A stretch of DNA of 64,000 nucleotides from Alphaproteobacteria bacterium (GCA_965221125.1 CBDCRW010000002.1:64001-128000); one strand, 5' to 3'. Numbered from the stretch's first letter, positions 17,433 to 34,347 are shown. Numbers and translations: made by a program. Notes: generated from the sequence alone by a model not told the origin.

Positions 17433-17519
17433 TGGATCAACTTATCGGGACATTCGAACATGTTATCCTCGACCAACCGACAGCATCCGGGGATTCGAAT
17501 GTCCCGGTCGATCCACTAG
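17433..17519. repeat. Imperfect palindromic intergenic element overlapping the mgsC stop codon
   Basis: CGGGACATTCGAA (17446-17458) pairs with TTCGAATGTCCCG (17494-17506). Outer TGGATC/GATCCA, ending at CTAG. Confidence 0.6.
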
Positions 17520-18883
17520 TAGCGGTTCATGTCGGGGCGGCCGACGGTGTGCTGGGAGCCGGCGAGCGGCACCTGGGCCATGGCGGAGGCCTCCATGGTG
17601 AGCGCGGCGAGGTCCTCCGGCTCCAGGCTGTGCACGTCGGTCTTGCCGCAGGCGCGCGCCATCATCTGGCATTCCAGCGTGAGCGTGTGGAGGAAGTTGT
17701 AGACCCGCTCCGCCGCCTCGTCGGGGTCGAGCCGCTTCCTGAGCTCCGGGTCCTGCGTGGCGACGCCCACGGGGCAGCGCCCGGTGTGGCAGTGGTAGCA
17801 GTAGCCGGCCTCGACGCCGATCTCGGACTCGAAGTCGGCCTCCGGGATGTCCTTGTTGCAGTTGAGCGCCATCATCACCGAGTGCCCGATGGCGCAGGCA
17901 TCGGCCCCCAATGCGAGCGCCTTGGCGATGTCGCCGCCGTTCCGCACGCCGCCAGCGTAGACGAGGCTGATCTTGCCGCTGGCGCCGAGGTCGTCGAGCG
18001 CCTTGCGCGCCTGGCGGATCGCGGCGATGCCGGGCACGCCGGTCTCCTCGGTCGCCAGATGCGGGCCGGCGCCGGTGGAGCCCTCCATGCCGTCGATGTA
18101 GATGCTGTCCGGCCCGGTCTTGATCGCCATGCGCACGTCGTCATAGACGCGGGCCGCGCCCAGCTTGAGCTGGATCGGGATCTCGGCGTTGGTGGCTTCC
18201 CTGATCTCGTTGATCTTGAGCGCGAGGTCGTCGGGCCCGAGCCAGTCCGGGTGCCGCGCCGGCGAGCGCTGGTCGATGCCGGCCGGCAGCGAGCGCATCT
18301 CCGCCACCTGGTCGGTGACCTTCTGCCCCATCAGGTGGCCGCCGAGGCCGACCTTGCAGCCCTGGCCGATAAAGAACTCGCAGGCGTCCGCGAGGCGCAG
18401 GTGGTGCGGATTGAAGCCGTAGCGCGACTGGATGCACTGGTAGAGCCACTTCTCGGAATAGCGCCGCTCGTCCGGGATCATCCCGCCCTCGCCGGAGCAG
18501 GTCGCGGTGCCGGCCATGGTGGCGCCGCGGGCGAGCGCGGTCTTGGCCTCGTACGAGAGCGCGCCGAAGCTCATGCCGGTGACGTAGACCGGGATGTCGA
18601 GCACCAGCGGGCGCTTCGCCATGGGGCCTATCACCGTCGTGGTCGTGCACTTCTCCCGGTAGCCCTCGATCACGAAGCGCGTGAGCGTGCCCGGCAGGAA
18701 GGTGAGATCGTCGAAGGTCGGGATGTTCTTGAAGAGCGAGAAGCCCCGCATCCGGTAGCGGCCGAGCTCCGCCTTGATGTGGATGTCGTCGATCACCTCC
18801 GGCGAGAAGATGCTGCTGCGCCCCAGGATGTGGCGGTTGCGGCCGGGCCGGTTGGCGACGGCTTCGCGTCTGTCGCTGGCCAT
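17516..18883 (-). CDS. mgsC: FMN-binding glutamate synthase-family protein (N-methylglutamate synthase subunit C-like)
   Basis: GMSFGALS, SGEGG, GQG.K.G.GG.L.G.KV and C.HCHTGRCPVGVATQ motifs, plus operon context. Confidence 0.88.
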   Translation of the reverse strand: MASDRREAVANRPGRNRHILGRSSIFSPEVIDDIHIKAELGRYRMRGFSLFKNIPTFDDLTFLPGTLTRFVIEGYREKCTTTTVIGPMAKRPLVLDIPVYVTGMSFGALSYEAKTALARGATMAGTATCSGEGGMIPDERRYSEKWLYQCIQSRYGFNPHHLRLADACEFFIGQGCKVGLGGHLMGQKVTDQVAEMRSLPAGIDQRSPARHPDWLGPDDLALKINEIREATNAEIPIQLKLGAARVYDDVRMAIKTGPDSIYIDGMEGSTGAGPHLATEETGVPGIAAIRQARKALDDLGASGKISLVYAGGVRNGGDIAKALALGADACAIGHSVMMALNCNKDIPEADFESEIGVEAGYCYHCHTGRCPVGVATQDPELRKRLDPDEAAERVYNFLHTLTLECQMMARACGKTDVHSLEPEDLAALTMEASAMAQVPLAGSQHTVGRPDMNRY

Positions 18884-18920: not shown

Positions 18921-19772
18921 CTAGAGCGCGATCTTCTTCTCGCTCGGCTCGAGGTTGTCGTAGTTCCAGAGCTGCTTGCCGGCGACGATCTTGGTCAGGC
19001 TGCCGACGCCGCCCGGCGCCTCCATCCCGTAGGTCGAGAGCTTGCGCTCGAGCCAGCGCGCCTCGACGTCGGTGATCTCGCCGGGCACGGCGTCGACGCC
19101 GAGGGACTCGATGGTGCCGCCGACGTAGATCGTGCCGTCGTAGAGCGAATCGCCCAGGTTGGGGCCGGCGTCGCCCAGGATGACGATGCGCCCGCGCTGC
19201 ATCATGAAGCCGGTGAACGCGCCGGCGCGGCCGCCGATGAGGATGGTGCCGCCCTTCATGTCGATGCCGGTGCGCGAGCCCACGTCGCCCTTGCAGACGA
19301 GGTCGCCGCCCCGGAGCGCTGCGCCGAAGGTGGAGCCCGCGTTCTTCTCCACCACCACGACGCCGGCCATCATGTTCTCGGCGCAGGACCAGCCGACGCG
19401 GCCCTTGATGTGGATGTTGGGGCCGTCGACCAGGCCGCAGCCGAAGTAGCCGAGGCTGCCCTCGAAATCGAGCTTGAGCCGGTTGAGGATGCCGACGCCG
19501 AGGGAGTGCTTGGCCAGCGGGTTCTGCACCACGATGTGGCCGTAGCCCTCGCCCATCAGCTCGCGGATGCGGAGGTTGACGGCGGGCCCGTCCAGCTCGG
19601 CCGCGTCGATCGTCGCCTTCTTGCTGAAATCGACGGCGAAGCCCTCGGGGTAGGTGTAGTTGTCGCCTTCCTCGGGCACGAAGAAGACCTGCTGGGTGCG
19701 GCCCGCGAGCTGCTCCGCGTGCAGCCCCATGTCATGGGATTTGTGCCGGTCGTCGGCGCTCAGTTCTGCCAT
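18921..19772 (-). CDS. mgsB: GXGXG-repeat protein (N-methylglutamate synthase subunit B-like)
   Basis: GXGXG beta-helix repeats (AENMMAG, GIDMKGG, GFMMQRG). Overlaps the upstream gene. Confidence 0.85.
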   Translation of the reverse strand: MAELSADDRHKSHDMGLHAEQLAGRTQQVFFVPEEGDNYTYPEGFAVDFSKKATIDAAELDGPAVNLRIRELMGEGYGHIVVQNPLAKHSLGVGILNRLKLDFEGSLGYFGCGLVDGPNIHIKGRVGWSCAENMMAGVVVVEKNAGSTFGAALRGGDLVCKGDVGSRTGIDMKGGTILIGGRAGAFTGFMMQRGRIVILGDAGPNLGDSLYDGTIYVGGTIESLGVDAVPGEITDVEARWLERKLSTYGMEAPGGVGSLTKIVAGKQLWNYDNLEPSEKKIAL

Positions 19773-20716
19773 ACCTTGACCTCCCCCTCGTAGGGATCCC
19801 AAGTGTCGATCTCGTCGGGCATGATGCCGCGGATCGCGACCTCCTCGGAGGCGAGGCCCACGAAGTCGTCGCTCTCGTAGAGCACCATGGGCTTGGCCGC
19901 CATGGTGTCCTTCGCCATGCCGAGGCTGTCCGCCGTCGCCACCAGGTAGGTGAAGACGCCGTCGAGCTCGTTCACCGAGCGGTCCATCGCCTCCTTGAGC
20001 GCGTCGCCCTGCTCGATGCGGTCGGCGAGGTAGACGGCGATCAGCTCGGAATCGCAGTTCGACATGAAGCGGTGGCCCCGGTGCTCCAGCGCCCGGCGGA
20101 ACTTCCAGTAGTTGGTGAGCTGGCCGTTGTGGACCACGGAGATGTCGTTGAAGGGATAGGCCCAGTAGGGATGGGCCGAGCGGATGTCGACGTCCGATTC
20201 CGTCGCCATCCGGGTGTGCCCGATGGCGTGGGTGCCCCGGAAGCCGGCGAGGCTGTACTGCTCGCTCACGATGCCGGCGTCGCCCAGGTCCTTGATCAGC
20301 TCCAGCGCGCGGCCGAGGGAGAGGATCTCCGCCCCTTCCACGTCCTCGATGTAGTCGGCGAAGCGCTTGAGCCGCTGCTGGCCGCCGTCGTCGTCAGCGG
20401 GGAAGCGCAGGCCGTAGCGGAAGGCGTACTCGGTCGCCTGCTCCTCGCCGACGATCTCCACGTCCATGCTGCGGATGCGCGCGTCGACCTCCGCCTTGCG
20501 GTCCTTGATCTGCCGGTGGATTTCGAAGCCCTTGCCGATGTCCTCCTGCTCCGCCACCTTGAAGCGCATCACGTGGTCGCTCTCGACCGGGATGCCGTAG
20601 ATGGCGAAGCCGGTGGAATCCGGCCCGCGGTGCTTGAGCGCCTGCAGCATCGTGGTCATCTCCGAGCCGATGTCGCCGCTCGATCCGCGATGGATCAGTC
20701 CTGCTATCCCGCACAT
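19760..20716 (-). CDS. mgsA: Class II glutamine amidotransferase (N-methylglutamate synthase subunit A-like)
   Basis: MCGIAG N-terminal Cys, HRGPDS.G, GHTRMATES and VHNG motifs. Confidence 0.88.
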   Translation of the reverse strand: MCGIAGLIHRGSSGDIGSEMTTMLQALKHRGPDSTGFAIYGIPVESDHVMRFKVAEQEDIGKGFEIHRQIKDRKAEVDARIRSMDVEIVGEEQATEYAFRYGLRFPADDDGGQQRLKRFADYIEDVEGAEILSLGRALELIKDLGDAGIVSEQYSLAGFRGTHAIGHTRMATESDVDIRSAHPYWAYPFNDISVVHNGQLTNYWKFRRALEHRGHRFMSNCDSELIAVYLADRIEQGDALKEAMDRSVNELDGVFTYLVATADSLGMAKDTMAAKPMVLYESDDFVGLASEEVAIRGIMPDEIDTWDPYEGEVKVWQN

Positions 20717-20749: not shown

Positions 20750-22219
20750 CTAAGGCAGGCAGTCGAGATAGGTCTCGACGTCCCACTCGGTGACGGTGGA
20801 CATGAAGCGCTCCCACTCGTCCCGCTTGTAGTGCATGAAGACCTTGAACATCTCGTCCGGCAGCGCGGCCTTGATGACCTCGTCCCGCTCCAGCGCATCG
20901 AGCGCCTCGCCCAAGGACATCGGCAGCTTCTTCACCAGCTTGCCGGCTTCCATGGCCTGGTAGATGTTGCGCTCCTCCGGCTCGCCGGGGTCGAGATCGC
21001 GCGAGATGCCGTCGTCAAAGGCCTTGAGGATCGTGGCCGCCATCAGATACGGATTGACCATCGAATCGACCGAGCGGTACTCGAAACGGCCGGGCGCGGA
21101 GACGCGCAAGCCGCAGGTCCGGTTCTGATAGCCCCAGTCGGCGAAGACCGGCGCCCAGAAGCCGGTATCCCAGAGGCGCCGGTAGGAGTTGACCGTCGAC
21201 GAGCCGAGGGCGGTGAGCGCGGCGAGATGCTCCATCACGCCGCCGATGCAGTTCAGCCCGACCGGGCCCGGCTTGTGGTCGTCGATGGAGGGGTCGGGCA
21301 TGAACAGGTTGTCGCCGCCCTTCCAGTAGCTGAACGTGTCCTCCAGGCCGGGCATCGGGTCCTGGTGCAGCGCGTTGACGCGCTGCTCGCCGCCGGTCCA
21401 GAGCGAGACGTTGTGGTGGCAGCCGCTCGCGGAGACCCCCATGAAGGGCTTCGACATGAAGCAGGCGATGACGCCGTGCTCGCGCGCGACCTGGGCGCAG
21501 ATCTGGCGGTAGGTGGTGAGCCGGTCGGCGGTCCTGAGCGCGTCGTCGTAGGTGAAGTTGAGTTCGAGCTGGCCGGGCGCGTCCTCGTGGTCGCCCTGGA
21601 TCATGTCGAGCCCCATGGCCTGGCCGTACTCGATCACCTGCATGAAGATCGGGCGCAGTTCCTCGAACTGGTCGATGTGGTAGCAGTTGGGCTTGGTCAC
21701 GCCGCCGTCGGCGCCGCCGTCCGCGCCCCGCTTCAGCCACATCATCTCGGGCTCGGTGCCGTGGCGCATCTGCATTCCGTGCTTGGCCTGGAACTCATCG
21801 TGGATGATGCGCAGGTTGCCGCGGCAATCCGACGTGAGGTGCCCGCCGGGGTTCTCGCGCTCCTCGCGGTTGCGGAAGCAGGTGCAGAAGACGCGGGCCA
21901 CGCGCTTGTCCCAGGGCAGCTGCACGAAGGTCTCGGGGTCCGGGATGCCGACCAATTCCGAGGCTTCCGGCCCGTAGCCGATGTAGTTGGAGTGGCGGTC
22001 GGTGAAGAGGTTGGCGGTCGAGCCGTAGACGAGCTGGAAGCCCCGCTCCGCGATCTGCTCCCAGTGATCGGCGGGGATGCCCTTGCCGACGATCCGCCCG
22101 GTGACGGACACGAACTGGTAGTAGATGTAGGTGACGCCGAGCTCGTCGATCTTGGCGCGCACCTGGCGCACCAGCTCGTCCCGGCCCTCTGCGTTCACGT
22201 GGGCTTCAAGATCGGTCAT
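20750..22219 (-). CDS. gmaS: Glutamine synthetase-like protein, probable gamma-glutamylmethylamide synthetase
   Basis: GTEPE, DHEDAPGQLE, FMSKP...ASGCH, NSYRRL, QNRT..LR and E.RS.D motifs. Substrate inferred from the adjacent mgsABC. Confidence 0.72.
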   Translation of the reverse strand: MTDLEAHVNAEGRDELVRQVRAKIDELGVTYIYYQFVSVTGRIVGKGIPADHWEQIAERGFQLVYGSTANLFTDRHSNYIGYGPEASELVGIPDPETFVQLPWDKRVARVFCTCFRNREERENPGGHLTSDCRGNLRIIHDEFQAKHGMQMRHGTEPEMMWLKRGADGGADGGVTKPNCYHIDQFEELRPIFMQVIEYGQAMGLDMIQGDHEDAPGQLELNFTYDDALRTADRLTTYRQICAQVAREHGVIACFMSKPFMGVSASGCHHNVSLWTGGEQRVNALHQDPMPGLEDTFSYWKGGDNLFMPDPSIDDHKPGPVGLNCIGGVMEHLAALTALGSSTVNSYRRLWDTGFWAPVFADWGYQNRTCGLRVSAPGRFEYRSVDSMVNPYLMAATILKAFDDGISRDLDPGEPEERNIYQAMEAGKLVKKLPMSLGEALDALERDEVIKAALPDEMFKVFMHYKRDEWERFMSTVTEWDVETYLDCLP

Positions 22220-22252: not shown

Positions 22253-23596
22253 TCAGCTCCACGGGAAGGGGCTGTTGGAGACCGGATGAAGGCGGCCCTC
22301 CGCAAAGCGCGAGAAGCGGAAGGGCTCGAGCAGGGCGCTTTCGCGGCCCATCAGCTCGTCCGCCACCAGCTTGCCGACGGCGAGCATCTTGTAGCCGTGG
22401 TTCGAATCGGCGACCACGTAGCAGTTCTCGCGGAAGCGGTCGAACACGGGAAAGCTGTCGGCGGTAAACGCGCCGATGCCGCCGGAGGGCTCGTCGAGCC
22501 AGCGCCCGATCTGGCCGCTGTAGCGGCTCTGGCAGAAGGCGAGCGCCGAGCACCACATCTCCCTGAACTCGCCATCGACCACGAACTCGGGCGACTCCGG
22601 CCCGTAGGGGTCGATGGCTACGTCGGGCACCGGGGTCTTCACCTTGTAGGGCGCGGCCCCGCCCTGGACGCCGCCGAAGTTGAAGTCCGGCTTGTAGTAG
22701 ATGCCCCACATCTCGTCGGTGATCAGCCTGCCGTCCACGTCGGAATAGAGCGGCTCGTTGGAATCGACGTGGATGACCGGCGGCATCGACCCGTCGTCGG
22801 CCATGCCGAGGGAGGGCTCGACCGCAATCGTCCCTTCCTGCAGGCACCAGAAGCGCCACATGTCGACGTCGCGATGCAGCGTGCCCTCAAGGTCCTTCAC
22901 GTCGATCCGCTCCGGCAGGTCGAGCATCTCCCAGATGCGCGGTACCCAGGGGCCGACGGCGACGACCACCTGATCGACGCCGATGGAGCCCTGGTCGGTC
23001 TCCACCTGCGTCACCGCCCTGGAGTTGGCGCCGAAGCCGAAGCCCTTGACCTCGACCCCGGTGAGGATGCGCACGCCGGTGCCCCGCGCCTTGTCCGCGA
23101 GCCCGTGCATGGAGGCCTTGTTGTGGGCGTAGCCGCCCCTCTTCTCGTGCAGGACCGAGGTGATGCCGGGCGCCTGCCAGTCGGCGAACAGCTTCCGCAT
23201 GTACGCCCTGCAGTCCGCCTCGCCCTCGATGAACTCGGATTCGTAGCCGATCTCGCGCTGCTGCGCGGCGATCTCGGCGACGTCGGCGTGCATGCTCTCG
23301 GGGCTGATCTGCATGTAGCCCACGGGGTGGTAGTGGTAGGCCTCGGGGTCTTCCTCCCAAGCCTCCACGCAGGCCGCCATCAGCTCGCGCATCGCCGGCT
23401 GGTAGTAGTTGTTGCGGATGACGCCGCAGGCGATGCCCGAGGCGCCGGCCGCGATGTCGGACTTGTCCACGATCGCGATGTCCGCACCGCTGCCGCTGCC
23501 CTGCGCCTTCAGCGCGAGCGCAAGGTGATAGGCGGTGCTGAGGCCGTGGATCCCGGCCCCGATGATCAGATACTTGACGTGGCCCGGAAGCGTCAT
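22253..23596 (-). CDS. FAD-dependent oxidoreductase (DAO / sarcosine oxidase beta / MgdA-like)
   Basis: IIGAGIHGLSTAYHL, GASG...G.IR.NY and T.D..PV motifs. Confidence 0.85.
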   Translation of the reverse strand: MTLPGHVKYLIIGAGIHGLSTAYHLALALKAQGSGSGADIAIVDKSDIAAGASGIACGVIRNNYYQPAMRELMAACVEAWEEDPEAYHYHPVGYMQISPESMHADVAEIAAQQREIGYESEFIEGEADCRAYMRKLFADWQAPGITSVLHEKRGGYAHNKASMHGLADKARGTGVRILTGVEVKGFGFGANSRAVTQVETDQGSIGVDQVVVAVGPWVPRIWEMLDLPERIDVKDLEGTLHRDVDMWRFWCLQEGTIAVEPSLGMADDGSMPPVIHVDSNEPLYSDVDGRLITDEMWGIYYKPDFNFGGVQGGAAPYKVKTPVPDVAIDPYGPESPEFVVDGEFREMWCSALAFCQSRYSGQIGRWLDEPSGGIGAFTADSFPVFDRFRENCYVVADSNHGYKMLAVGKLVADELMGRESALLEPFRFSRFAEGRLHPVSNSPFPWS

Positions 23597-23659
23597 CTGT
23601 TCCTTCTCCCGACCTTGATCGGCCGATGTTCCGGGGGCGCACTCAAGCGGGCAGCCCCC

Positions 23660-23712: not shown

Positions 23713-23853
23713 GAATGAATGGTTGAACGCAGCGCAAAAATTGACTAAAGCAAAGGGGCCCGCATGCGGCCTGTCTCGTGGCGTGAGGCGTTTTGGGAGG
23801 CGATTTGGGTCACGGGCCGGCGGGCGGCACGCAACGAAAAACGGGCTGACGCC

Positions 23854-24573
23854 ATGCAGCTGGAAAGCACACGGTTGAGTAACGAGAACGGCGGAATCCC
23901 GAGACCGGCCGATTCGGCGGCCGACTCGATCGCCGCGCAGCTCGCGCGGCAGATCCTCGACGGCTCGCTCGCCATGGGCGACCGCCTGCCGCCGGAGCGC
24001 AGCCTCGCCGAATCCTTCTCCGCCTCGCGCGGCACGGTACGCGAGGCCCTGCGCTCGCTCAGCGCGCGCGGGCTGGTGGCGCGCCGCGTCGGCAGCGGCA
24101 CCTTCGTCATCTACGAGCCGGACTCGGGCGAGACCGACGTCTCCGAGATCACCTCGCCGCTGGAACTGGTCGAGGTCCGCGCCGCCATCGAGCCGCAGAT
24201 GGCCCGCCTTGCGGTGCGCAACGCCACGGCCCGCGACATGGCCGCGCTGGAACGCGCGGTGGCCGAGATGGAGGGCGTGGACGACGCCGAGAGCTTCTCG
24301 CTCGCCGACGAGATGTTCCACCTGCGGCTGGCCGAGGCCACGCACAACCCGCTGATTGTCGAGATCTATCACCGCATCAACCACGTCCGCGCCCACCAGC
24401 AGTGGGATTCGATCAAGAACAAGATCCTGACGCCGGCGCAGATCACCGCGTACAACGCCGAGCACCGCGACCTGCTCCTGGCCCTCTCCCGCCGCGATGC
24501 CGAGCGTGCGGTGGAGGTCCTGTCCGCCCACATGGAGCGCGCCCGCGCCGACCTGCTGGCCAGCGTCGGCTGA
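23854..24573 (+). CDS. GntR/FadR family transcriptional regulator
   Basis: GDRLPPER.LA..F..SR.TVREAL wHTH and FCD domain (D..FH..LA.A.HN). Confidence 0.93.
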   Translation: MQLESTRLSNENGGIPRPADSAADSIAAQLARQILDGSLAMGDRLPPERSLAESFSASRGTVREALRSLSARGLVARRVGSGTFVIYEPDSGETDVSEITSPLELVEVRAAIEPQMARLAVRNATARDMAALERAVAEMEGVDDAESFSLADEMFHLRLAEATHNPLIVEIYHRINHVRAHQQWDSIKNKILTPAQITAYNAEHRDLLLALSRRDAERAVEVLSAHMERARADLLASVG

Positions 24574-24640
24574 TCCGCCCACCTGCGGCGGGCATCCCCC
24601 GTGGCGATTTCGGGGTGAGACGCCGCCCCGATTGTGTTTA

Positions 24641-24764: not shown

Positions 24765-25958
24765 ATGAACGAGGACAAACTTCTCAAGCAGATGGTGAAG
24801 CGCGACCCGGTGCGCGGTGCGGCCGCCACCCGGCGCCAGGTGCTGCAGGGCATCGGCGCAGGCGCGCTGGCGCTCGGCGCGGGCGGCGCTTTCGCGGGCC
24901 GGGCCCGGGCCGCCGACGAGCTCACGATGCTGACCTGGGACGGCTACGTCGACCCCCGCGTGCTCGACGGCTTCACCGAGCAGTACGACACCGGCATCAA
25001 GTACGAGCTGCACACCTCGGACCCGGATTCGGTCAACAAACTCCGCGCGGGCGAGACCGCGATCTGGGACATCATCAACCTGAACAACCCGTGGGCGCGC
25101 GAGATGATGTGGCCGGAAGGGCTGATCGTCGAGCTCGACCGTGCCCGCTTCGAGCCCTACTTCGACGCGATGCTGCCGATGTTCAAGCCGCCCTACAAGT
25201 GGGCGATGAGCCTCGACAACGAGCATCTGCTGGGCGTCTGCCAGCGCGTGGATACCTTCGACTTCGTGGTCAACACCGACGTGATCTCGGCCGACATGGC
25301 GAAGGACGAAGGCTGGGATCTGTTCAACAATCCCGACATGGAAGGCCGCTACGGCATCCTCGCCTACGACAACTGGAACATCATGCACATCTGCATGGCC
25401 GCCGGCCTGCATCCGTTCAAGGAGAAGACCGACGACGAGGTCGCGATCTTCGAGGAGGCGGCAAGACGCCTCATCAACGGCGCGAAGATGGTCTCGGACG
25501 ACTTCGTCGCCGTGAACCTCGCCGTGATCAACGACGAGATCGACATGTACTTCGGCGGCGGCACCTACTCGATCTCGGCGGCCCGGCTCGACGGGCTCAC
25601 CAACCTCTACCACGTGGTGCCGAAGAGCGGGCCTGCCGACGGCAAGGGCGGGATCAACTGGATCGAGCTCAGCTCGGTGGTGAACAATCCCGACCTGCAC
25701 CCCAAGGCCATGGACTGGATGGAGTACATCCTCCAGCCCGATACCTCCTACGCCGTGGCGACGGCCGGCGGCTTCCTGCTCCCGGTGGGGCAGATGTCGC
25801 AGCCGGAGCTGCTCGCCAAGTTCACGGCGGAAGAGCTCGACTCCTTCCAGTGGGACGAGTTCGACTACCGCATCTCGCACTCCGTCGAGTACGACGTGGT
25901 GCCGGACTACAACCGGCTCTACGACATCTACACGGCGGCGCGGCGCGAGAAGTCGTAA
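24765..25958 (+). CDS. ABC transporter solute-binding protein, PotD/PotF-like, Tat-exported
   Basis: TRRQVL twin-arginine signal and L..LTWDGY motif. Confidence 0.88.
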   Translation: MNEDKLLKQMVKRDPVRGAAATRRQVLQGIGAGALALGAGGAFAGRARAADELTMLTWDGYVDPRVLDGFTEQYDTGIKYELHTSDPDSVNKLRAGETAIWDIINLNNPWAREMMWPEGLIVELDRARFEPYFDAMLPMFKPPYKWAMSLDNEHLLGVCQRVDTFDFVVNTDVISADMAKDEGWDLFNNPDMEGRYGILAYDNWNIMHICMAAGLHPFKEKTDDEVAIFEEAARRLINGAKMVSDDFVAVNLAVINDEIDMYFGGGTYSISAARLDGLTNLYHVVPKSGPADGKGGINWIELSSVVNNPDLHPKAMDWMEYILQPDTSYAVATAGGFLLPVGQMSQPELLAKFTAEELDSFQWDEFDYRISHSVEYDVVPDYNRLYDIYTAARREKS

Positions 25959-26081
25959 ATCCGGCCGGCTGCGGCGGGGGCGTGCGGCGGCTGAGGCCGC
26001 GCGCCCCCGCCCCGATCGCACGCCCGGCCGCACCCGGCCGGGCGGCGGTGCATTTGCGGAGAGAGAATCGAGTCGAGCGCC

Positions 26082-27149
26082 ATGGTGGATGCCGCGCCTA
26101 TCCTGCGCATGGTCAACCTGACCAAGCAGTTCGGCCGACTGGTCGCCGTGAACGACGTCACCCTCGACATCCAGGAGGGCGAGTTCTTCACCATCGTGGG
26201 CCCGTCCGGCAGCGGCAAGACCACGCTGCTGCGCATGCTGGGCGGGCTGGAGAAGCCGACGGCGGGCGATATCTACCTGCGCGACGAGCGGGTCAACCGG
26301 GTGCCCGCCAACCGGCGCCCGACCTGCATGGTCTTCCAGTCCTTGGCCCTCTTCAACCACAAGACCGTGGGCCAGAACATCGAGTTCTCGCTGAAGATGC
26401 GGGGCGAGAGCCGCCGCGCCCGCCGCGAGCGCGGTCTCTCGCTCATGAACGTGGTCCAGCTGCCGGAGGACTTCTACGACAAGTCCGTCACCAAGTGCTC
26501 GGGAGGTGAGCGCCAGCGCGTGGCGCTGGCCCGTGCTTTGGCTTCCGACCCGGACATCCTGTTCTTCGACGAGCCGCTCTCCGCCATCGACTACCGCCTG
26601 CGCAAGCTGCTCGAGGTCGAGCTCAAGGACCTCCACCGCACCACCGGCAAGACCTTCGTCTACATCACCCACTCCCTCGAGGAGGCGATGGTGATGAGCG
26701 ACCGCATCGGCATCATGCAGGAGGGCCGCCTGATCCAGATCGGCTCGCCCAACGAGATCTACCTGCAGCCGCGCAACAAGTTCGTCTCCGAGTTCATGGG
26801 CGAGGTGAACACCCTTGCGGTGCACGCGGGCGCGGACGGCGGCATCGACTGCCCCGCCTTCGAGCGCCGCTTCACCAGCCCGGCCCGGCCGGACGGCTTC
26901 GCCAGCGGCTACCTGGTGATCCGGCCCGAATCGATGCGCTTCCTGAACGATCCTTCCGAAGCCGAGAACCATCTCGAGGGCTCGCTCTTCAACGAGTATG
27001 CGCTCGGCTCGCGCGTGCAGTACCACGTGAGCGCGGGTGGCTCGATGTTCGTCGTCGAGAAGCTCCGCGAGCAGGCCTATCGGGGCGCGCTCAACGACGA
27101 CGTGCTGATCGGCTGGGACGCCAAGGACAGCGTGCTCGTGACCGACTGA
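26082..27149 (+). CDS. ABC transporter ATP-binding protein, PotA-like
   Basis: GPSGSGKT, SGGERQRVALARAL, DEP and ITH motifs. Confidence 0.93.
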   Translation: MVDAAPILRMVNLTKQFGRLVAVNDVTLDIQEGEFFTIVGPSGSGKTTLLRMLGGLEKPTAGDIYLRDERVNRVPANRRPTCMVFQSLALFNHKTVGQNIEFSLKMRGESRRARRERGLSLMNVVQLPEDFYDKSVTKCSGGERQRVALARALASDPDILFFDEPLSAIDYRLRKLLEVELKDLHRTTGKTFVYITHSLEEAMVMSDRIGIMQEGRLIQIGSPNEIYLQPRNKFVSEFMGEVNTLAVHAGADGGIDCPAFERRFTSPARPDGFASGYLVIRPESMRFLNDPSEAENHLEGSLFNEYALGSRVQYHVSAGGSMFVVEKLREQAYRGALNDDVLIGWDAKDSVLVTD

Positions 27150-27159
27150 TGGCCGGCTG

Positions 27160-28065
27160 ATGGCAGAGGCCCCGACACCGTTGATCCGCCAGCCGGGGGT
27201 GGGCTCGCTCCTGTTCGGCTGGCTGCGCTCGCCCGGCGTGCTCAACGCGACGCCCGTCCTGGTCTTCTTCCTGATCGGCTTCGTCGGCCCGCTGGTGATC
27301 GTGCTGGCCTTCAGCTTCACGCCCGAGCGCACCTTCGACCTCGGCGCCGGCTTCACCACCGAGAACTACGAGCACATCTTCACGGAGAGCTACTACATCT
27401 CCTTCATCTGGTCGTTCGGGCTGGCCGGCGTCACCGTCCTCTGCAACCTCCTGATCGGCTACCCGATCGCCTACGGCCTCGCCAAGCTCTTCGGCCGCTG
27501 GGCCGCGCCGGTCATGCTGGTGCTCGTCATCCCCCTCTTCGTCTCGGAGAACGTGCGGCTCTTCGGCTGGTATCTCTTCCTGATCAAGGGCGGCGGCATC
27601 CTGGCGGGCGGGCTCAAGACCGCCTTCGGCATCGACACCGGCACCATGCTCTACGAGCCCGGCACCATCCTCATGGGCATGATCTACGTCTATCTGCCCT
27701 TCACCCTCTTCCCCATCGTGCTCGGGCTCTCCATGGTGCCGCGCGACCAGGTGGAGGCCTCGCGCGACCTCGGCGCGAGCCGCTTCCAGATCTTCCGCGA
27801 GGTGGAGCTGCCGATCGCCATGCCCGGCATCCTCATCGGCGCGCTGCTGACCTTCGTGCTGGCGGTCGGCGCGATCTCGGAGGCCAAGCTCTTGGGCGGC
27901 CAGAACACGCCGGTGATCGCGCAGGACATCCAGCACGAGTTCACCTACGCGCAGAACTGGCCGCTGGGCTCGGCGATCTCGGTGCTGGCCATCGTGGTCA
28001 CCGGCTTCCTCGTGGTGCTGGTGATGCGCCGGCTCGACCTCGACCGGCTGCTGGGCCGACGATGA
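27160..28065 (+). CDS. ABC transporter permease, PotB-like
   Basis: Hydrophobic helices and EASRDLGA (EAA loop). Confidence 0.92.
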   Translation: MAEAPTPLIRQPGVGSLLFGWLRSPGVLNATPVLVFFLIGFVGPLVIVLAFSFTPERTFDLGAGFTTENYEHIFTESYYISFIWSFGLAGVTVLCNLLIGYPIAYGLAKLFGRWAAPVMLVLVIPLFVSENVRLFGWYLFLIKGGGILAGGLKTAFGIDTGTMLYEPGTILMGMIYVYLPFTLFPIVLGLSMVPRDQVEASRDLGASRFQIFREVELPIAMPGILIGALLTFVLAVGAISEAKLLGGQNTPVIAQDIQHEFTYAQNWPLGSAISVLAIVVTGFLVVLVMRRLDLDRLLGRR

Positions 28066-28086
28066 CGGCTGCGGGCGGGCGCTGAG

Positions 28087-28890
28087 ATGGAGAACAAGCG
28101 CTGGGTCATATGGCTGATCGCGGTCTGGACCGGCGTGATCGCGCTCTTCCTCTACATCCCGATCTTCTCGGTCATCGTCAGCTCCTTCGGCAAGTCCCGC
28201 TACTTCCGCTTCCCCGTGAAGGCGTGGAGCGACAAGTGGTACGACCAGACGCTCGGCGCCAACCTGACCACGGACCTGCACCTCACCTCGTTCTACGTCG
28301 CGGGCTGCGTCGCGCTGATCGCGGTGGTGCTCGGCTTCTTCGGCGCCCTTGCCTTCGCCCGCTACAACTGGCGCGGCCGCCAGTTCTATCAGCGCCTCAT
28401 CATGCTGCCGATCTTCTTCCCCCAGGCCGTGCTCGGCCTGGCACTCCTGCTCTGGTTCACCTACGTCGGCGTGCTGCCGAGCTGGGAGGCGGCGGTCTTC
28501 GCCCATCTGGTCTGGATCGTGCCGATCGTGACGCTGGTGATCTCGATCCAGGTCTATGGCTTCGACGCGGCGCAGGAGGAGGCGGCCTACGACCTCGGCG
28601 CGAGCCGCTGGCAGGCCTTCCGCGAGGTCACGCTGCCGGCTTTGGCCCCCGGCCTCTTCTCCGGCGCGCTCTTCGCCTTCCTGCTGTCCTGGGGCAACTT
28701 CCCGCTGTCCACCTTCACCACGGGGGCGGACAGCACGGTGACCGAGTGGCTCTACACCAAGATGGGCTCCGGCTACACGCCGATGATCCCGACCATGGGC
28801 GCGCTCTCCGTGTTCGGCGCCATCGTCATCCTCTTCGGCGGCTACATGTTCCTGATCGCCCGCCGCCGCCGGCAGGAGCGGGGCGAGTAG
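28087..28890 (+). CDS. ABC transporter permease, PotC-like
   Basis: Hydrophobic helices and EEAAYDLGA. Confidence 0.92.
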   Translation: MENKRWVIWLIAVWTGVIALFLYIPIFSVIVSSFGKSRYFRFPVKAWSDKWYDQTLGANLTTDLHLTSFYVAGCVALIAVVLGFFGALAFARYNWRGRQFYQRLIMLPIFFPQAVLGLALLLWFTYVGVLPSWEAAVFAHLVWIVPIVTLVISIQVYGFDAAQEEAAYDLGASRWQAFREVTLPALAPGLFSGALFAFLLSWGNFPLSTFTTGADSTVTEWLYTKMGSGYTPMIPTMGALSVFGAIVILFGGYMFLIARRRRQERGE

Positions 28891-28937
28891 CGCCGCATTC
28901 GCTCACGCCAGGCCGAAGTCGTCGAACGGAGGCAGGA

Positions 28938-29957
28938 ATGGACCTCAGATCGCATATCCGGGCGCTGCCCAAGGCCGAGCTTCACCTGCATCTGGAAGGC
29001 GCGATCGACCCGGAACTGATGATGCGGCTGGCCGCCAGGAACGGGGTCGGGATCCCGTTCCGCTCGGCGGACGAGATTCGGGCCGCCTGCCGCTTCACCC
29101 GGCTGCAGGATTTCCTGGACCTCTACCACCAGGGCATGGCCGTGCTCCGCACCGAGGAGGACTATTTCGAGCTCACCGCAGCCTACCTGGAGCGCGTGGC
29201 CGCCGACGGCGCGGTTCACGTAGAGGTGTTCTTCGACCCCCAGGGCCACACGGCGCGCGGCATTCCCTTCGCCACCGCGGCGGACGGCATCCTGGCCGCG
29301 CTCGCGGAAGGCCGCGAGAGGCTGGGCGTCACGTCGCTGCTCATCATGAACGTCTGGCGCGACCTGAGCGAGGACGAGGGCTTCGCCGCCTTTCGCGAGG
29401 CCGAGCCCTATGTCGCCGACCGGCGGATCGCCGGCCTCGGCCTCGATTCGACCGAGTTGGGCCATCCGCCCGCGAAGTTCGAGCGCCTCTTCGCCGCGGC
29501 GCGCGAGGCCGGCCTCAGGCTCGTCGCCCACGCCGGCGAGGAGGGCCCGGCATCCTATGTCGCCGAGGCGGTGGACCGGCTGGGCATCGATCGCATCGAT
29601 CACGGCAACAGCGCCCTCGACGACCCGGCGCTGGTCCGCCGCCTGGCGGAGAGAGGCACGACGCTCACCGTGTGTCCGCTCTCCAACCTGCGGCTCGGCG
29701 TCGTCCCCGACCTGGAGCGGCACCCGCTGAAGCGCATGCTCGACGCGGGCCTCAAGGCCACCGTCAACTCGGACGATCCGGCCTATTTCGGGGGCTATCT
29801 GGTGGACAATTTCGTCGCGGTGGCCGAGGCGCTCGCGCTGGAGCGGGCGGACCTGGCCACGCTGGCGCGCAATTCGATTCAGGGCTCGTTCCTCGACGAG
29901 CCGGCGAAGTCGGCGCACCTGGAGCGGATCGACCGGGCCGTCGCGGCGGACGGGTGA
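28938..29957 (+). CDS. Adenine/adenosine deaminase family amidohydrolase
   Basis: PKAELHLHLEG, FFDPQ, AHAGE, RIDHG, CPLSN and NSDDP motifs. Confidence 0.92.
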   Translation: MDLRSHIRALPKAELHLHLEGAIDPELMMRLAARNGVGIPFRSADEIRAACRFTRLQDFLDLYHQGMAVLRTEEDYFELTAAYLERVAADGAVHVEVFFDPQGHTARGIPFATAADGILAALAEGRERLGVTSLLIMNVWRDLSEDEGFAAFREAEPYVADRRIAGLGLDSTELGHPPAKFERLFAAAREAGLRLVAHAGEEGPASYVAEAVDRLGIDRIDHGNSALDDPALVRRLAERGTTLTVCPLSNLRLGVVPDLERHPLKRMLDAGLKATVNSDDPAYFGGYLVDNFVAVAEALALERADLATLARNSIQGSFLDEPAKSAHLERIDRAVAADG

Positions 29958-30087
29958 TCGTGGCGCCCGGCCACGGTGCGGGTCTCCGCCGCGGGCACAC
30001 ACGCGGGAGTTGTCTCGCCGGGCGCATCGCGTTCTAATCCCCCCGCTTTTGGAAGACGCGCAGGCTGCGCGCCGCAGGGAGTAGCCG

Positions 30088-30390
30088 ATGGCCTATCAAG
30101 TCACGGAACAGGACCTTTACGTCGTCGACGAGTTCATGGAGAACCCGATCGGCCACCACAGCCCCGACCTGCAGCGGGTGCTCAACACGCTCCGGGGGGC
30201 GGACGTCAAGGGCAAGCACTGCCTTGTCTGCACCAAGCCCGGCCGCGAGTGGCAGCTCGCCCAGCTCTCGGGCGTGCGCGGCAAGCCGGTCAAGATGCTC
30301 GACAAGACCTTCGACAATATCGAGGACGCCGAGCGCTACGTCTTCCGCCTGCGCTGGAAGCAGCACACCGGCAAGGCGCTGCCCAAGTAG
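30088..30390 (+). CDS. N,N-dimethylformamidase small subunit-like protein
   Basis: EF..NPIGHHSPDLQRVLN.LR and AE..VF.LRW motifs, directly upstream of the large subunit. Confidence 0.75.
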   Translation: MAYQVTEQDLYVVDEFMENPIGHHSPDLQRVLNTLRGADVKGKHCLVCTKPGREWQLAQLSGVRGKPVKMLDKTFDNIEDAERYVFRLRWKQHTGKALPK

Positions 30391-30465
30391 ACGCCGCGAC
30401 CGCCACCGCGCGCGCGGCCCTCTGCACCACACACGATCGACCGCCAGGCCCTGGGGGAGCTACAC

Positions 30466-32718
30466 ATGACCAGAATCGCGGGCTATTCCGACCGCGTCAG
30501 CGTGACGCCGGGTGAGACCATCAACTTCATGGTGAGTTGCGAGGCGCCCTCCTACAAGTGCGACATCGTCCGCCTCATCTGCGGCGACCAGAACCCCGAC
30601 GGCCCCGGCGTCATCGAGAAGGTCGTCCGCACCGGCGCGAACGGCACCTACAAGGGCCGCCGCCAGGTCTGCCACGACGGCTCCTTCATGGAGGTCCCGG
30701 CGCACCCTGCGATCAACGGGCTGGAGAGCTTCACCTTCCAGGCCTTCATCTGGCCGACCACGCCGGATCGCGGCACCCAGGCGCTGATCTCGAGCTGGCG
30801 CGACCGCGACAAGGCCGGTGCTGCGCTCATCATCACCAAGAAGGACGGCTCGCTCGCGCTCTGCCTCGGCGACGGCGAGGGCAACATCGAGGTGACCGCC
30901 ACCAACCGCCCGCTGATCCCGCACCAGTGGTACTTCGTCGCGGCCGCCTACGACGCCGGCTCGAAGCAGGTGACGCTGGTGCAGCAGCCGCTGAACGAAT
31001 ACCCCAACGTCAAGCACAGCCGGGTCATGAAGAAAAAGTCCGCGCTGAGCGGGCCCGGCGGGCACGACGCGCCACTCACCATGGGCGGCTACTTCAAGCG
31101 CGTCGACAAGGGGCGGACCGTCTGCGGCGGCTTCTACAACGGGCGCATCGACAGCCCGCGCATCGCGAACCGCGTGCTGAGCCCGGCGGAGATGGAGCTT
31201 GCCAAGACCCGGCCCGTGGACGGCGATCTCTCCACCTCTATCGTCGGCGCCTGGGACTTCTCGCAAGGCATCAAGACGACGACGGCGACCGATCTCTCCG
31301 CCAACCGGCTGCACGGCAGCCTCGTCAACATGCCGACCCGCGCCGTCACCGGCTGGTGCTGGGACGGCAGCGAGATGAACTGGCAGAACGCGCCGGAGCA
31401 GTACGGCGCGATCCACTTCCACGAGGACGACGTCTACGACGCGCGCTGGGAGGTCGATTTCTCGCTCACCTGCCCGAAGCGGCTGAAGAGCGGCGTCTAT
31501 GCCGCGAGGCTGCGCGGCGAAGGCGGCGGCGAGGAGTACATCCCCTTCGCCGTGCGCGCACCGCGCGGCCAGCCCACCGCGAAGATCTGCTTCCTGCTGC
31601 CCACCGCGAGCTACATGGCCTACGCCAACACCAACATGTCCACCAACATGGGGGCGGCGCAGATCCTCGCCGGCCGGCTCACGGTGCTGAACGACAGGAA
31701 CCTCCAGCGGAGCGAGCACCGGGAATACGGGACCTCGCTCTACGACAGCCACATCGACGGCAGCGGCATCTGCTACTCCTCGCGGCTGCGCCCGATCCTC
31801 AACTTCCGCCCGAAGGCGCTGGAGTGGATCGGCGGCACGGAGTCCACGCTCTGGCAGTTCAATGCCGACACGCACCTGACCGAGTGGCTGGAGGCCAAGG
31901 GCTTCGAGTACGACGTCGTCACCGACGAGGACCTGCACTACGAGGGCCTCTCGGCAATCGAGGACTACACGGTCGTGCTCTCCGGCTCGCACCCGGAATA
32001 CCACTCGAAGGCGATGTGGGATGCGATGTACGCCTACCAGCAGCGGGGCGGCCGGCTCATGTACATGGGCGCCAACGGCTGGTACTGGCGCATCGCCTTC
32101 CACACCGAGGTGCCGGGCTGCATCGAAGTGCGCCGCGCCGAGGACGGCATCCGCACCTGGATCGCGCGGCCCGGCGAGTACTACCACAGCTTCACCGGCG
32201 AGTACGGCGGCCTCTGGCGGCGCAACGGCCGCCCGCCCCAGGTGATCGTCGGCACCGGCTTCAGCGCGCAGGGCTTCGATATCTCGTCCTACTACGTGCG
32301 CCAGCCGGACAGCTTCAAGAAGGAGGTCGCCTGGATCTTCGACGGCATCGGCGAGGACGAGAGGATCGGCGACTTCGGGCTGATCGGCGGCGGTGCTGCG
32401 GGGCTCGAACTCGACCGGGTCGACCCGCTGCTCGGCACGCCGCCCAACACCTACACGCTGGCCACGTCGGAGGGTCACACCGACCTCTACCTCGTGGTCT
32501 GCGAGGAGCTGGACGTGAACCGGCCCAACTGCGACGGCACGCAGGACCCGCTGGTGCGCGCCGACGTCGTGTTCTACGAGACCGCGAACGGCGGCGCCGT
32601 GTTCTCCACCAGCTCCATCGCCTGGTGCGGGAGCCTCGCGCACAACGACCACGACAACAACGTCTCGCGCATGACCGAGAACGTCCTGCGCCGCTTCGCC
32701 GATCCGACCCCGTTCTGA
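30466..32718 (+). CDS. N,N-dimethylformamidase large subunit-like protein
   Basis: GY.DR.S..PG, LamG-like region, PTASYMAYAN, SLYD.H.DG.G, GSHPEY and YMGANG.YW motifs. Confidence 0.88.
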   Translation: MTRIAGYSDRVSVTPGETINFMVSCEAPSYKCDIVRLICGDQNPDGPGVIEKVVRTGANGTYKGRRQVCHDGSFMEVPAHPAINGLESFTFQAFIWPTTPDRGTQALISSWRDRDKAGAALIITKKDGSLALCLGDGEGNIEVTATNRPLIPHQWYFVAAAYDAGSKQVTLVQQPLNEYPNVKHSRVMKKKSALSGPGGHDAPLTMGGYFKRVDKGRTVCGGFYNGRIDSPRIANRVLSPAEMELAKTRPVDGDLSTSIVGAWDFSQGIKTTTATDLSANRLHGSLVNMPTRAVTGWCWDGSEMNWQNAPEQYGAIHFHEDDVYDARWEVDFSLTCPKRLKSGVYAARLRGEGGGEEYIPFAVRAPRGQPTAKICFLLPTASYMAYANTNMSTNMGAAQILAGRLTVLNDRNLQRSEHREYGTSLYDSHIDGSGICYSSRLRPILNFRPKALEWIGGTESTLWQFNADTHLTEWLEAKGFEYDVVTDEDLHYEGLSAIEDYTVVLSGSHPEYHSKAMWDAMYAYQQRGGRLMYMGANGWYWRIAFHTEVPGCIEVRRAEDGIRTWIARPGEYYHSFTGEYGGLWRRNGRPPQVIVGTGFSAQGFDISSYYVRQPDSFKKEVAWIFDGIGEDERIGDFGLIGGGAAGLELDRVDPLLGTPPNTYTLATSEGHTDLYLVVCEELDVNRPNCDGTQDPLVRADVVFYETANGGAVFSTSSIAWCGSLAHNDHDNNVSRMTENVLRRFADPTPF

Positions 32719-32725: not shown

Positions 32726-33520
32726 TTGCCCATAGGGGCGGAGCGGGTTTCCGCCCCGTCGGCCCCGACCGGCGGGCCGGTGCTGGAGGTCGACGCGCTC
32801 ACCAAGCGCTTCAGCAAGGTGACCGCCGTCGACGCGGTGAGCTTCACCGTGGCGCGGGGCGCGACCGCGGCGCTGCTCGGCGCGAACGGTGCCGGCAAGA
32901 CCACCACCATCGCGATGATCCTGGGCCTGCTGCTGCCGAGCGCAGGCTCCGTGCGCGTCTTCGGCCGCGAGATGGCGACGGAGCGCTACGCCCTGCTGCC
33001 CCGCATGAACTTCTCCTCGCCCTACACGGACCTCCCCCACCGGCTCACCGTGCGCGAGAACCTCACCGTCTATGCGAGGCTCTACGGCCTGGCCGACGTC
33101 CGCGCGCGCATCGAGCGCATGGCGGAGACCCTCGACCTCGGCGATTTCCTCAAGCGGCCCACCGGCAAGCTCTCGGCCGGGCAGCGGACGCGCGTGGCCC
33201 TCGCCAAGGCGCTGCTCAACGACCCGGAATTGCTGCTGCTGGACGAGCCCTCGGCCTCGCTCGACCCCGACACGGCCGACTGGGTGCGGGGCGTCATCGA
33301 GCGCTACCGGGCCGAGACCGGCGCCACGATCCTGCTCGCCTCCCACAACATGGCCGAGGTGGAACGCCTCTGCGACGACGTGCTCGTGATGTGCGCGGGC
33401 CGCATCGTGGAAAGCGGCACGCCTGCGGACATGATCGCACGCCACGGCCTCGGCACGCTGGAGGAGGTCTTTCTCGAGATCGTGCGGGGCACGGGCAGCC
33501 TCGGCGAGGCGGCGCCGTGA
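32726..33520 (+). CDS. ABC-2 type exporter ATP-binding protein (start uncertain)
   Basis: GANGAGKTT, LSAGQ, LLDEP and SH motifs. Confidence 0.88.
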   Translation: MPIGAERVSAPSAPTGGPVLEVDALTKRFSKVTAVDAVSFTVARGATAALLGANGAGKTTTIAMILGLLLPSAGSVRVFGREMATERYALLPRMNFSSPYTDLPHRLTVRENLTVYARLYGLADVRARIERMAETLDLGDFLKRPTGKLSAGQRTRVALAKALLNDPELLLLDEPSASLDPDTADWVRGVIERYRAETGATILLASHNMAEVERLCDDVLVMCAGRIVESGTPADMIARHGLGTLEEVFLEIVRGTGSLGEAAP

Positions 33521-34347
33521 TGGGGAACGGCGGCGCACGCGCGCTCCCGTGGCCGGGACCTCTGCAGCGCATATGGGCGCTGGTGCTGCGCCACACCTAC
33601 CTGCTGCGGCGCTCCTGGCCGCGCCTGCTCGAGCTCACCTACTGGCCCACGGTGCAGATGATCATCTGGGGCCTGGTGACCATGTTCCTCGTCACCAACA
33701 GTTCGTGGGTGGCGCAGGCGGCGGGCGTGCTGCTCGCCGGCGTGATCCTGTGGGACGTGATGTTTCGCGGCCAGATCGGGCTTTCCCTGGTGTTCATCGA
33801 GGAGATGTGGTCGCGCAACCTCGGCCACCTCTTCGTGAGCCCGCTCCGGCCCTGGGAGCTGATCTGCGCGCTCATGCTCATCAGCCTGATCCGCACGCTG
33901 ATCGGGATGACGGGCGCGGTGGGCTTCGCCTTCCTGCTCTACGCGTTCTCGATCTTCGATCTCGGCTTCGCGCTGATCGGCTTCTTCGTGAACCTGATCG
34001 TGATGGGCTGGGCCGTGGGCTTCTTCGTCTGCGGCCTGGTGCTGCGCTACGGCCTCGGCGCGGAGAGCCTCGCCTGGTTCCTGATCTTCGCGCTGGCACC
34101 CTTCAGCTGCGTCTACTACCCGCTCTCGATCCTGCCGGACTGGCTGGAGCCGGTCGCCGCCATCCTGCCCTCCGCCCACGTCTTCGAGGGGATGCGCGCA
34201 CTCCTGGTGGACGGCGTCTTCAGCGGCGATCACATGATGCGCGCGAGCCTGCTCAACATCGCCTGGATGGCGGTCGGCGTCGCCACCTTTCTCGCCTTCC
34301 TGCGCAGCGCCCGCATCCGCGGCCTGCTGCACCAGATCGGCGAATAG
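33520..34347 (+). CDS. ABC-2 type exporter permease
   Basis: Six hydrophobic segments and YYP...LP.WL motif. Overlaps the ATPase stop. Confidence 0.88.
   Translation: MGNGGARALPWPGPLQRIWALVLRHTYLLRRSWPRLLELTYWPTVQMIIWGLVTMFLVTNSSWVAQAAGVLLAGVILWDVMFRGQIGLSLVFIEEMWSRNLGHLFVSPLRPWELICALMLISLIRTLIGMTGAVGFAFLLYAFSIFDLGFALIGFFVNLIVMGWAVGFFVCGLVLRYGLGAESLAWFLIFALAPFSCVYYPLSILPDWLEPVAAILPSAHVFEGMRALLVDGVFSGDHMMRASLLNIAWMAVGVATFLAFLRSARIRGLLHQIGE

Follow-up and report, generated by a model that had tools for sequence, protein, structure and literature searches.

Which compound does a bacterium import and take apart when it joins a PotD-like ABC importer to an amidase resembling N,N-dimethylformamidase (DMFase), carries an adenine deaminase gene between the two, and keeps what looks like a methylamine pathway on the opposite strand alongside? 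The question is raised by positions 24765–32718 of a 64,000-nucleotide stretch of DNA from a marine Alphaproteobacteria bacterium (GCA_965221125.1, CBDCRW010000002.1:64001-128000), referred to here as the window. An earlier note, made from the sequence alone, had proposed that these genes scavenge an N-methylated purine or amide and feed the released amine into the N-methylglutamate route. It listed a plus-strand run of genes for a solute-binding protein (SBP), an ATPase, two permeases, a deaminase, and the small and large subunits of the amidase, and domain and family searches found all seven where it had placed them. We arrive at a narrower reading, in which our confidence and our doubt are about equal: a small amide would be imported and hydrolysed, the methyl-type amine set free would be consumed by the adjoining module, and the deaminase would be an accessory. 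In what follows, G000 denotes the genome carrying the window, other G numbers the other genomes searched, and L numbers the loci that were fetched; the close relatives are metagenome-assembled genomes (MAGs) of uncultured Alphaproteobacteria/Rhodospirillales.

A DMFase-family amidase behind an ABC importer

The large subunit aligns over its whole length with the DMFase of Paracoccus sp. DMF (PDB 6LVB; 622 bits), with which it shares a three-domain build and an iron site, and its score against DMFA2_C, far above the gathering cut-off (Table 1), places it in the DMFase family. An N-acetyl-(R)-beta-phenylalanine acylase (8HUY/8I5A) is matched at full length with a lower score (543 bits to 8HUY), and because this acylase belongs to the same family, the family is not limited to formamides. 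No sign of an aromatic beta-amino acid is seen at the locus. In DMFase, Tyr399, Tyr440 and Glu521 are the iron ligands and His519 and Asn547 are essential, whereas Phe693 of the neighbouring large subunit forms a constriction that the authors link to poor activity on larger amides (PMC7686228). The Tyr/Tyr/Glu motifs to which the earlier note had pointed were borne out both by alignment to 6LVB and by a 26-row alignment: all three ligands are kept in the window, as are His519 and Asn547. These five positions are intact throughout the 26 aligned large subunits, bar an exchange of Asn547 for Asp in one unrelated paralogue.

Position 693 sets the window enzyme apart from the validated DMFases. 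The window sequence has Val there, each of the 18 rows of its clade has Val, Ile or Leu, and in the 26-row alignment Phe occurs only in the enzymes of P. aminophilus pAMI2 and Methylobacterium sp. DM1 (pLVM1) and in the pAMI5 paralogue. In a maximum-likelihood tree, whose long branches meet near the root, the window large subunit falls within this 18-row clade (support 100/99), and pAMI2 and DM1 stand apart on a long branch of their own. By tblastn the window protein shares 44.3% identity with pAMI2 and 43.0% with DM1; unrelated plasmid paralogues are at least as similar to it, and an unrelated paralogue from Halalkalicoccus reaches 47.8%. By tree and by identity, then, the window large subunit is not an orthologue of the enzymes validated on dimethylformamide (DMF).

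The gene pair has the same small-then-large layout as DmfA1/DmfA2, but the DMFase genes follow a LuxR-type regulator and the window pair is embedded in an ABC importer operon. Its small subunit is 34–35% identical (tblastn) to DmfA1 of pAMI2 and DM1 and has a core motif in common with them. It is shorter (100 aa, as against 132–141 aa for DmfA1), lacking the roughly 35 N-terminal residues that make up the N-terminal helix region of DmfA1, and it matched no Pfam model. In all importer-amidase loci surveyed its gene lies directly upstream of that for the large subunit. Among 155 candidates for longer proteins containing the small subunit, one was found (233 aa, without a permease domain); no fusion of permease and small subunit was found for the clade, which is weak evidence on the point.

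DMFase homologues occur widely: according to a preprint they are present in 4.5% of complete genomes, and a Pacific Ocean protein survey detected them as well. In our search, large-subunit matches were found in 36/36 genomes of the taxonomic family of G000, all of them uncultured MAGs, with 2–9 per genome, a figure that counts matches and not gene copies. Among the papers listed by full-text literature searches, none described a DMFase homologue linked to an importer, or what such a homologue naturally acts on. To our knowledge, just two substrates are known for DMFase homologues, one of them an industrial solvent, the other an unnatural acyl amino acid.

G000 itself holds three large-subunit paralogues. 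The second (L057, G000:C1:49448-69394; open reading frames (ORFs) 9401-13141 and 14908-17250) is 53% identical and follows an SBP of the Bmp/PnrA type, a nucleoside-binding type, together with a double ABC ATPase and a BPD_transp_2 permease; tblastn detected no small subunit at L057. The third forms a DMFase-like pair (L058, G000:C5:128710-148650) of a 122-aa small subunit and a 42%-identical large subunit (C5:143710-145950). A gene of the glutamine synthetase (GS) family lies 1.6 kb downstream of the latter (G000:C5:147607-148878), and an upstream ORF of 595 aa joins DruA-like and DDE transposase domains.

The SBP of the window carries a twin-arginine (Tat) signal, TRRQVL, in its translation, and its best PDB match is PotD/PotF (E 6e-8). 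SBP, ATPase with TOBE domain and two permeases are laid out as in PotABCD and PotFGHI. An equivalog-level match to PotABCD was not found, however, with the SBP at 37.2 bits against the PotD model (cut-off 582) and the ATPase also below its cut-off (Table 1). Many Trp, Asp and Asn residues are invariant in an alignment of 18 SBP sequences. In a survey centred on the SBP, the small and large subunits follow the permeases at 15 of the 20 loci that have an SBP at least 72% identical and enough downstream DNA. Relatives of the window SBP differ from PotABCD/PotFGHI in their company, travelling with GS-like ligases or DMFase-like amidases. Those that are 54–61% identical come from Rhodobacterales and several gammaproteobacterial groups (L095–L150); at L105 (7074-13079), the one locus whose divergent upstream genes were scanned, these genes are of the FGase and isochorismatase families, and L134 also has an isochorismatase gene.

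The adjoining module and its linkage to the operon

Synteny was surveyed at 17 loci of the genus that had enough flanking DNA; left out were G020 and G010, for their short contigs, and G001 and G007, in which no orthologue was found (best match 53–54%). The importer lies directly upstream of the small and large subunits in 15/17, the exceptions being G016 and G017, whose importers are found elsewhere (L080, L083), and the divergent module adjoins in 14/17 (exceptions G012, G016 and G017). With these two counts, the arrangement is not due to chance. Importer, small and large subunit also occur together outside the genus (G028, G029, G034, L082, L085, L086, L089, L090 and L091), where in three loci a separate GntR/FCD gene, 31–33% identical, follows the large subunit.

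Amidase and GS/Mgs genes meet in other arrangements too, of which the first two given here are independent cases. G021, from another genus, has at the opposite end of the same module a 47%-identical amidase paralogue that is flanked on either side by small-subunit-like genes (L302). In L082 and L085, likewise of other genera, the operon is followed by an Mgs-like set and a different GS-like gene, which scores 256.4 bits against TIGR03105, in two different orientations, and the third amidase paralogue of G000, with its GS-like gene close by, is a further juxtaposition of this kind. Of the earlier proposal that the locus imports a compound and feeds its amine to the neighbour, two parts are supported, namely the conserved importer-amidase unit and the recurrent linkage to an N-methylglutamate-like module, and two are not, namely the deaminase as a member and a canonical methylamine operon as the neighbour.

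The module itself (16977-23596, divergent from the GntR gene) consists of a DAO flavoprotein, a GS-like ligase, an MgsABC-like trio and a 130-aa gene. The earlier note, which described a divergence 'via GntR', needs correcting on three points here. The GntR gene is on the plus strand, co-directional with the importer, and the DAO gene intervenes between it and the GS-like gene. The ligase labelled gmaS is not a canonical GmaS: it scores 320.8 bits against a TIGR03105 cut-off of 469.6, and on the genome the match is split around an insertion (165 + 154 bits); a canonical GmaS is encoded elsewhere in G000 (C5:321953-323236, 656.4 bits to TIGR03105). The residues proposed to form the methylamine pocket of RhGmaS (Tyr147, Gln175, Asp177, Glu179, Glu186 and Asn188, from PMC7948447, with an offset of +20 applied for the tag) are all kept at the aligned positions of the GS-like ligase. 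The DAO gene reaches 67.4 bits against the SoxB family, whose cut-off is 529. A second Mgs-like trio on contig 4 of G000 is 32/41/51% identical to that of the module, and MgsC-like paralogues elsewhere in G000 show 51%, 42% and 41% identity.

Judged from these sequences, the neighbour is a paralogous sister of the N-methylglutamate pathway and not the canonical methylamine operon. Like GmaS-MgsABC-MgdABCD, it has a flavoprotein and, after a GS-family ligase, genes with GATase-II, GXGXG and Glu_synthase domains. It differs in having a single DAO gene instead of the four-subunit MgdABCD, an insertion in the ligase, the extra 130-aa gene and a dedicated GntR.

Outside the genus, the GS-like ligase is 64–87% identical in 25 of 300 other Alphaproteobacteria searched, and 17 loci were fetched from such genomes for a class-wide comparison. 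The GS-like, MgsA, MgsB, MgsC and 130-aa genes are contiguous in 16/17. Across the same number of loci the MgsC-like protein is 80–93% identical and the 130-aa protein, encoded directly after it, 69–91% identical; the DAO gene is at the locus in 15/17. A GntR gene of 40–76% identity adjoins the module in 13/17, where the importer-amidase operon is absent, so the GntR belongs to the module and not to the importer.

The surroundings of the module bear on its role. Flanks were listed for ten loci, and at nine of these 20 ORFs were annotated, chosen as the largest beside the module. They comprise Amt (4), Tdm-like proteins with DUF1989 and GCV_T (3), an FMO-like monooxygenase (1), a formate-tetrahydrofolate ligase (1) and a formate-dehydrogenase-like molybdoenzyme (1), with a second Mgs set and a sarcosine-oxidase-alpha-like gene at one locus; nine further ORFs gave unrelated matches or none. 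The combination of DUF1989 and GCV_T is that of trimethylamine-oxide demethylase. Given its Tdm-like, FMO-like and Amt neighbours, the module fits a role in methylated-amine metabolism. One 1.4-Mb genome of 36% GC (L297, G071:C1:1199793-1219259) has both versions of the pathway in one island: immediately next to the six-gene module come a further GS-like gene and a further Mgs set, accompanied by Amt and a sarcosine-oxidase-alpha-like gene.

The deaminase in a variable slot

The deaminase scores above the cut-off of NF006850 (Table 1) and matches 3rys (342 bits) and 3ou8 (334 bits) end to end, with the HxH, AHAGE, DHG and NSDDP segments kept. These are AAur1117 of Arthrobacter aurescens (3RYS) and PA0148 of P. 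aeruginosa (3OU8), of cog1816, which are adenine rather than adenosine deaminases according to the title of Goble et al. (2011). Although alike over the full length, the window deaminase differs from both in lying inside an importer-amidase operon, and it does so in two genomes only. Its gene is intact and co-directional, begins 47 bases after the permease gene, and is the sole match to the A_deaminase family in G000, a 92% complete genome. PA0148-type enzymes reportedly accept N6-methyladenine. E. coli Add, of the same enzyme family, removes methylamine from N6-methyladenosine (PMC13296781).

The place that the deaminase occupies, the junction between the last permease and the small subunit, could be compared at 25 distinct loci in which both of these genes are visible (16 from the genus and nine from other genera or other MAGs, with duplicate contigs removed). 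This slot holds the deaminase in 2/25 (G000 and G002), an MttB-family methyltransferase in 7/25 and nothing in 16/25. The MttB gene product matches PF06253 with 660.5 bits and TIGR02369 with 331.8 bits, the latter below the cut-off, and a LysR gene stands alongside in five of the seven. This junction appears to be a place where accessory genes gather.

Searches of whole genomes gave a similar picture. A deaminase orthologue, at least 92% identical, is present in 2/21 genomes of the genus; among the other 19, 12 have a paralogue of 43–46% identity elsewhere and seven have no match at E 1e-60, and G002 has such paralogues besides its orthologue. In G005, the nearest relative of G000 in the large-subunit tree, the slot is empty. 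Around deaminase relatives of 57–80% identity, an amidase, importer or GS-like gene was matched in 0/80 of the best metagenomic loci, 52 of which exceed 5 kb. The third-position GC (GC3) of the deaminase gene is 0.909, compared with 0.94–0.98 in its neighbours. The earlier note had made its purine proposal depend on conserved linkage, and in the synteny survey the linkage of the deaminase is not conserved. We read the deaminase as a horizontally acquired accessory gene, an occasional passenger that stands outside any purine system of the locus. As the only A_deaminase match in G000, it may simply serve purine salvage there, and it should not be annotated within an N-methyl-purine pathway.

Readings of the locus, gene order and surroundings

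On the reading that we prefer, three units of different age would have come to lie side by side. One unit (24765-28890 and 30088-32718) would begin with the uptake of a small, probably cationic or amine-bearing compound by a Tat-exported SBP of the PotD superfamily and its ABC importer. Its amidase, a predicted cytoplasmic two-subunit Fe(III) enzyme, would then cleave an amide bond to give a short amine and an acid. The amine, most likely methylamine or dimethylamine, would be captured by the second unit (16977-24573), a GntR-controlled six-gene sister pathway that most likely loads it onto glutamate and then oxidises it. The third, the deaminase (28938-29957), most likely does what adenine deaminases ordinarily do, salvaging purines or nitrogen, and contributes no step. 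The gene identities, the catalytic residues, the synteny with its limits and the separate clade are shown; the cargo of the importer, the bond cut by the amidase and the use of its product by the module are inferred. A bolder version, which we consider unlikely, would have a natural N-methylated amide, taken up by the PotD-like importer, yield dimethylamine or methylamine. The module would then be an undescribed glutamate-dependent route, possibly an alternative dimethylamine step for bacteria without dmmDABC, and the slot a plug-in site for amine-liberating enzymes (MttB-type in seven loci, N6-(methyl)adenine deaminase in two). The locus is a tractable case: the amidase has an importer of its own and an unbroken iron site with an altered gate residue, and the amine module is found elsewhere among trimethylamine-oxide genes. 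The ligand of the SBP, once found, would put a name to a natural amide of the dissolved organic nitrogen of the sea and would also give a handle on an uncharacterised sister of the methylamine pathway.

Several observations weigh against the preferred reading. G016, G017 and G025 keep both importer and amidase, but apart, and G033, G030, G021 and G035 have amidase orthologues (61–63%) without the importer. Module and operon are separated by 1.9 Mb in G028, the module is absent at the locus in G012, G016 and G017, and the adjacency seen within the genus is largely one inherited event. Outside the genus, the SBP gene is immediately preceded by class-III aminotransferase genes (two in L087, one in L085), which point to a transaminable amine, something that methylamine is not expected to be. 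None of 56 loci with a 54–61% identical SBP carries the amidase; instead, at 25 of them a GS-like gene in the same orientation immediately precedes the SBP gene, an arrangement that looks like an uncharacterised amine-uptake cluster. Since the SBP family travels with amine-activating ligases, the cargo could be either the amine itself or an amide that bears an amine. The GS-like ligase, moreover, stays below the GmaS cut-off.

The same aminotransferases, upstream of the SBP in L087 and L085, would suit the uptake and deacylation of an N-acyl (e.g. N-acetyl) diamine or polyamine, whose amine would be transaminated or gamma-glutamylated without methylated amines playing any part, a reading that we regard as doubtful. 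It gains from PotABCD being the best named relatives of all four importer parts and from the acylase 8HUY being a family member, and the smaller gate residue suggests a roomier pocket; the pairing of GS-like ligase and DAO also resembles that of PuuA and PuuB. Yet the importer scores are all far under the equivalog cut-offs, the aminotransferase is absent from the locus in this genus, the neighbour is an Mgs-type module with Tdm-like, FMO-like and Amt genes in its wider context, and MttB fills the slot in seven loci. Operon and module might also be unrelated neighbours, brought together by a genus-specific accident, with the product of the amidase going elsewhere. The module and its GntR are indeed self-contained in 13/17 class-wide loci that lack the operon, G012, G028, G029, G034 and others have the operon with no module beside it, and relatives within one genus are not independent. 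We nevertheless think this quite unlikely, because amidase and GS/Mgs genes stand together in three more cases, each with its own arrangement (L302; L082 with L085; the C5 paralogue of G000), and because in the genus no regulator apart from the module's GntR is observed for the operon, whereas in other genera the large subunit is followed by a GntR/FCD gene distinct from that of the module.

A genuine N,N-dimethylformamidase (or N-methylformamidase) acting on solvent-type formamides, as in Paracoccus and Methylobacterium, is improbable, even though the five named active-site residues are kept, the small-subunit partner is present and a methylated-amine-type module adjoins. The large subunit is only 43–44% identical to pAMI2/DM1, less than to the Halalkalicoccus paralogue, and lies in a clade separate from the validated enzymes on their long branch. 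The gate Phe693 is replaced in all 18 rows of that clade, the N-terminal helix region of the small subunit is missing, and there is no LuxR-type DmfR, unlike in pAMI2 and pLVM1. Matches in 36/36 uncultured family MAGs fit poorly with a recent xenobiotic trait, and a PotD-type importer would not be expected for a neutral solvent. Most improbable of all is the scavenging of N-methyl-purines, in which N6-methyl(ated) adenine would be imported, the deaminase would free methylamine to the module and the amidase would act on a related substrate. The intact, co-directional deaminase, so close to the permease gene and the only one of its family in G000, speaks for it, as do the release of methylamine by E. 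coli Add and the action of the MttB family, the other occupant of the slot, on methylated amines. Against this, importer and amidase are conserved without the deaminase, which fills 2/25 slots and is missing from that of the nearest relative, G005; none of the 80 metagenomic relatives' loci has an amidase, importer or GS-like gene; and the SBP is of the PotD type, unlike the Bmp/PnrA nucleoside type that stands beside another amidase paralogue of G000.

Coordinates of the genes concerned are collected in Table 1. GC in the window is about 0.65–0.75, and from the SBP onwards the plus-strand genes are spaced 7–130 bases apart.

Table 1. Genes of the operon, the facing module and the slot, in window coordinates except for the MttB genes, which are given by locus.
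Feature	Position	Strand	Evidence
130-aa protein without family assignment, at the end of the six-gene N-methylglutamate-like module	16977..17369	-	no Pfam/NCBIfam match
MgsC-like, glutamate-synthase FMN-domain protein	17516..18883	-	Glu_synthase 294.8 bits
MgsB-like, GXGXG domain	18921..19802	-	GXGXG 57.8 bits
MgsA-like, class-II glutamine amidotransferase domain	19760..20716	-	GATase_6 and GATase_7 matches
GS-family ligase, GmaS-like, 489 aa with insertion	20750..22219	-	Gln-synt_C 278.5 bits
Single DAO-family FAD oxidoreductase	22253..23596	-	DAO 127.5 bits, residues 9-228
GntR/FCD regulator	23764..24573	+	GntR and FCD domains
SBP, divergent PotD/PotF superfamily	24765..25958	+	SBP_bac_8 51.9 bits
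Importer ATPase, PotA-like	26082..27149	+	ABC_tran and TOBE_2; PotA 288.9 bits (cut-off 482)
Importer permease, PotB-like	27160..28065	+	BPD_transp_1; PotB 151 bits, below cut-off
Importer permease, PotC-like	28087..28890	+	BPD_transp_1; PotC 126.5 bits, below cut-off
PA0148/AAur1117-type adenine deaminase	28938..29957	+	A_deaminase PF00962 301.8 bits; NF006850 467.4 bits (cut-off 419)
DMFase-family small subunit, 100 aa	30088..30390	+	6lvb_B match, E 0.0087
DMFase-family large subunit, 750 aa	30466..32718	+	DMFA2_C (PF20254) 345.5 bits (gathering cut-off 27); Laminin_G_3
ABC-2 type exporter pair	32726..34347 (ATPase 32726-33520; permease ~33520-34347)	+	ABC_tran; ABC2_membrane
MttB in slot	L034:5426-8100; L036:11852-14526; also L035, L038, L042, L043, L075		non-pyrrolysine MttB family

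Contigs from the RNA libraries of three studies cover parts of nearly all genes, the deaminase included, at 92–99% likeness; two of them bridge the small/large junction, and depth is highest over the SBP bins in 4/4 runs, although such contigs neither prove transcription nor rank genes. A promoter and terminator scan gave 0 promoter-like sites and six terminator-like sites, with 4.9 expected, numbers that carry no information on transcription units. One terminator-like hairpin follows the GntR gene (24610-24631), sites of this kind being no commoner than in shuffled sequence.

Downstream, the exporter pair begins seven bases past the stop of the large subunit. Its ATPase is 83–89% identical and adjoins the large subunit in 13/13 full loci of the genus, but in G012 and G028 no such ATPase gene follows the large subunit. 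Efflux of the amidase product or of a toxic amine would be a conceivable role. Further upstream, the window contains a cluster of mobile elements (2069-9291) with an IS110-family transposase, an RVT_1 ORF for a reverse transcriptase and an integrase of the phage type that carries an Arm DNA-binding domain. This is followed on the minus strand (9415-13537) by a row of arylmalonate-decarboxylase/racemase-like, gamma-glutamyltranspeptidase and amidase-signature genes, an amide and gamma-glutamyl theme near the module. Between that row and the module, a plus-strand stretch of lower GC (~14300-16936; 0.645) contains a long ORF whose C-terminal part, on a reading of its translation only, resembles an autotransporter beta-domain.

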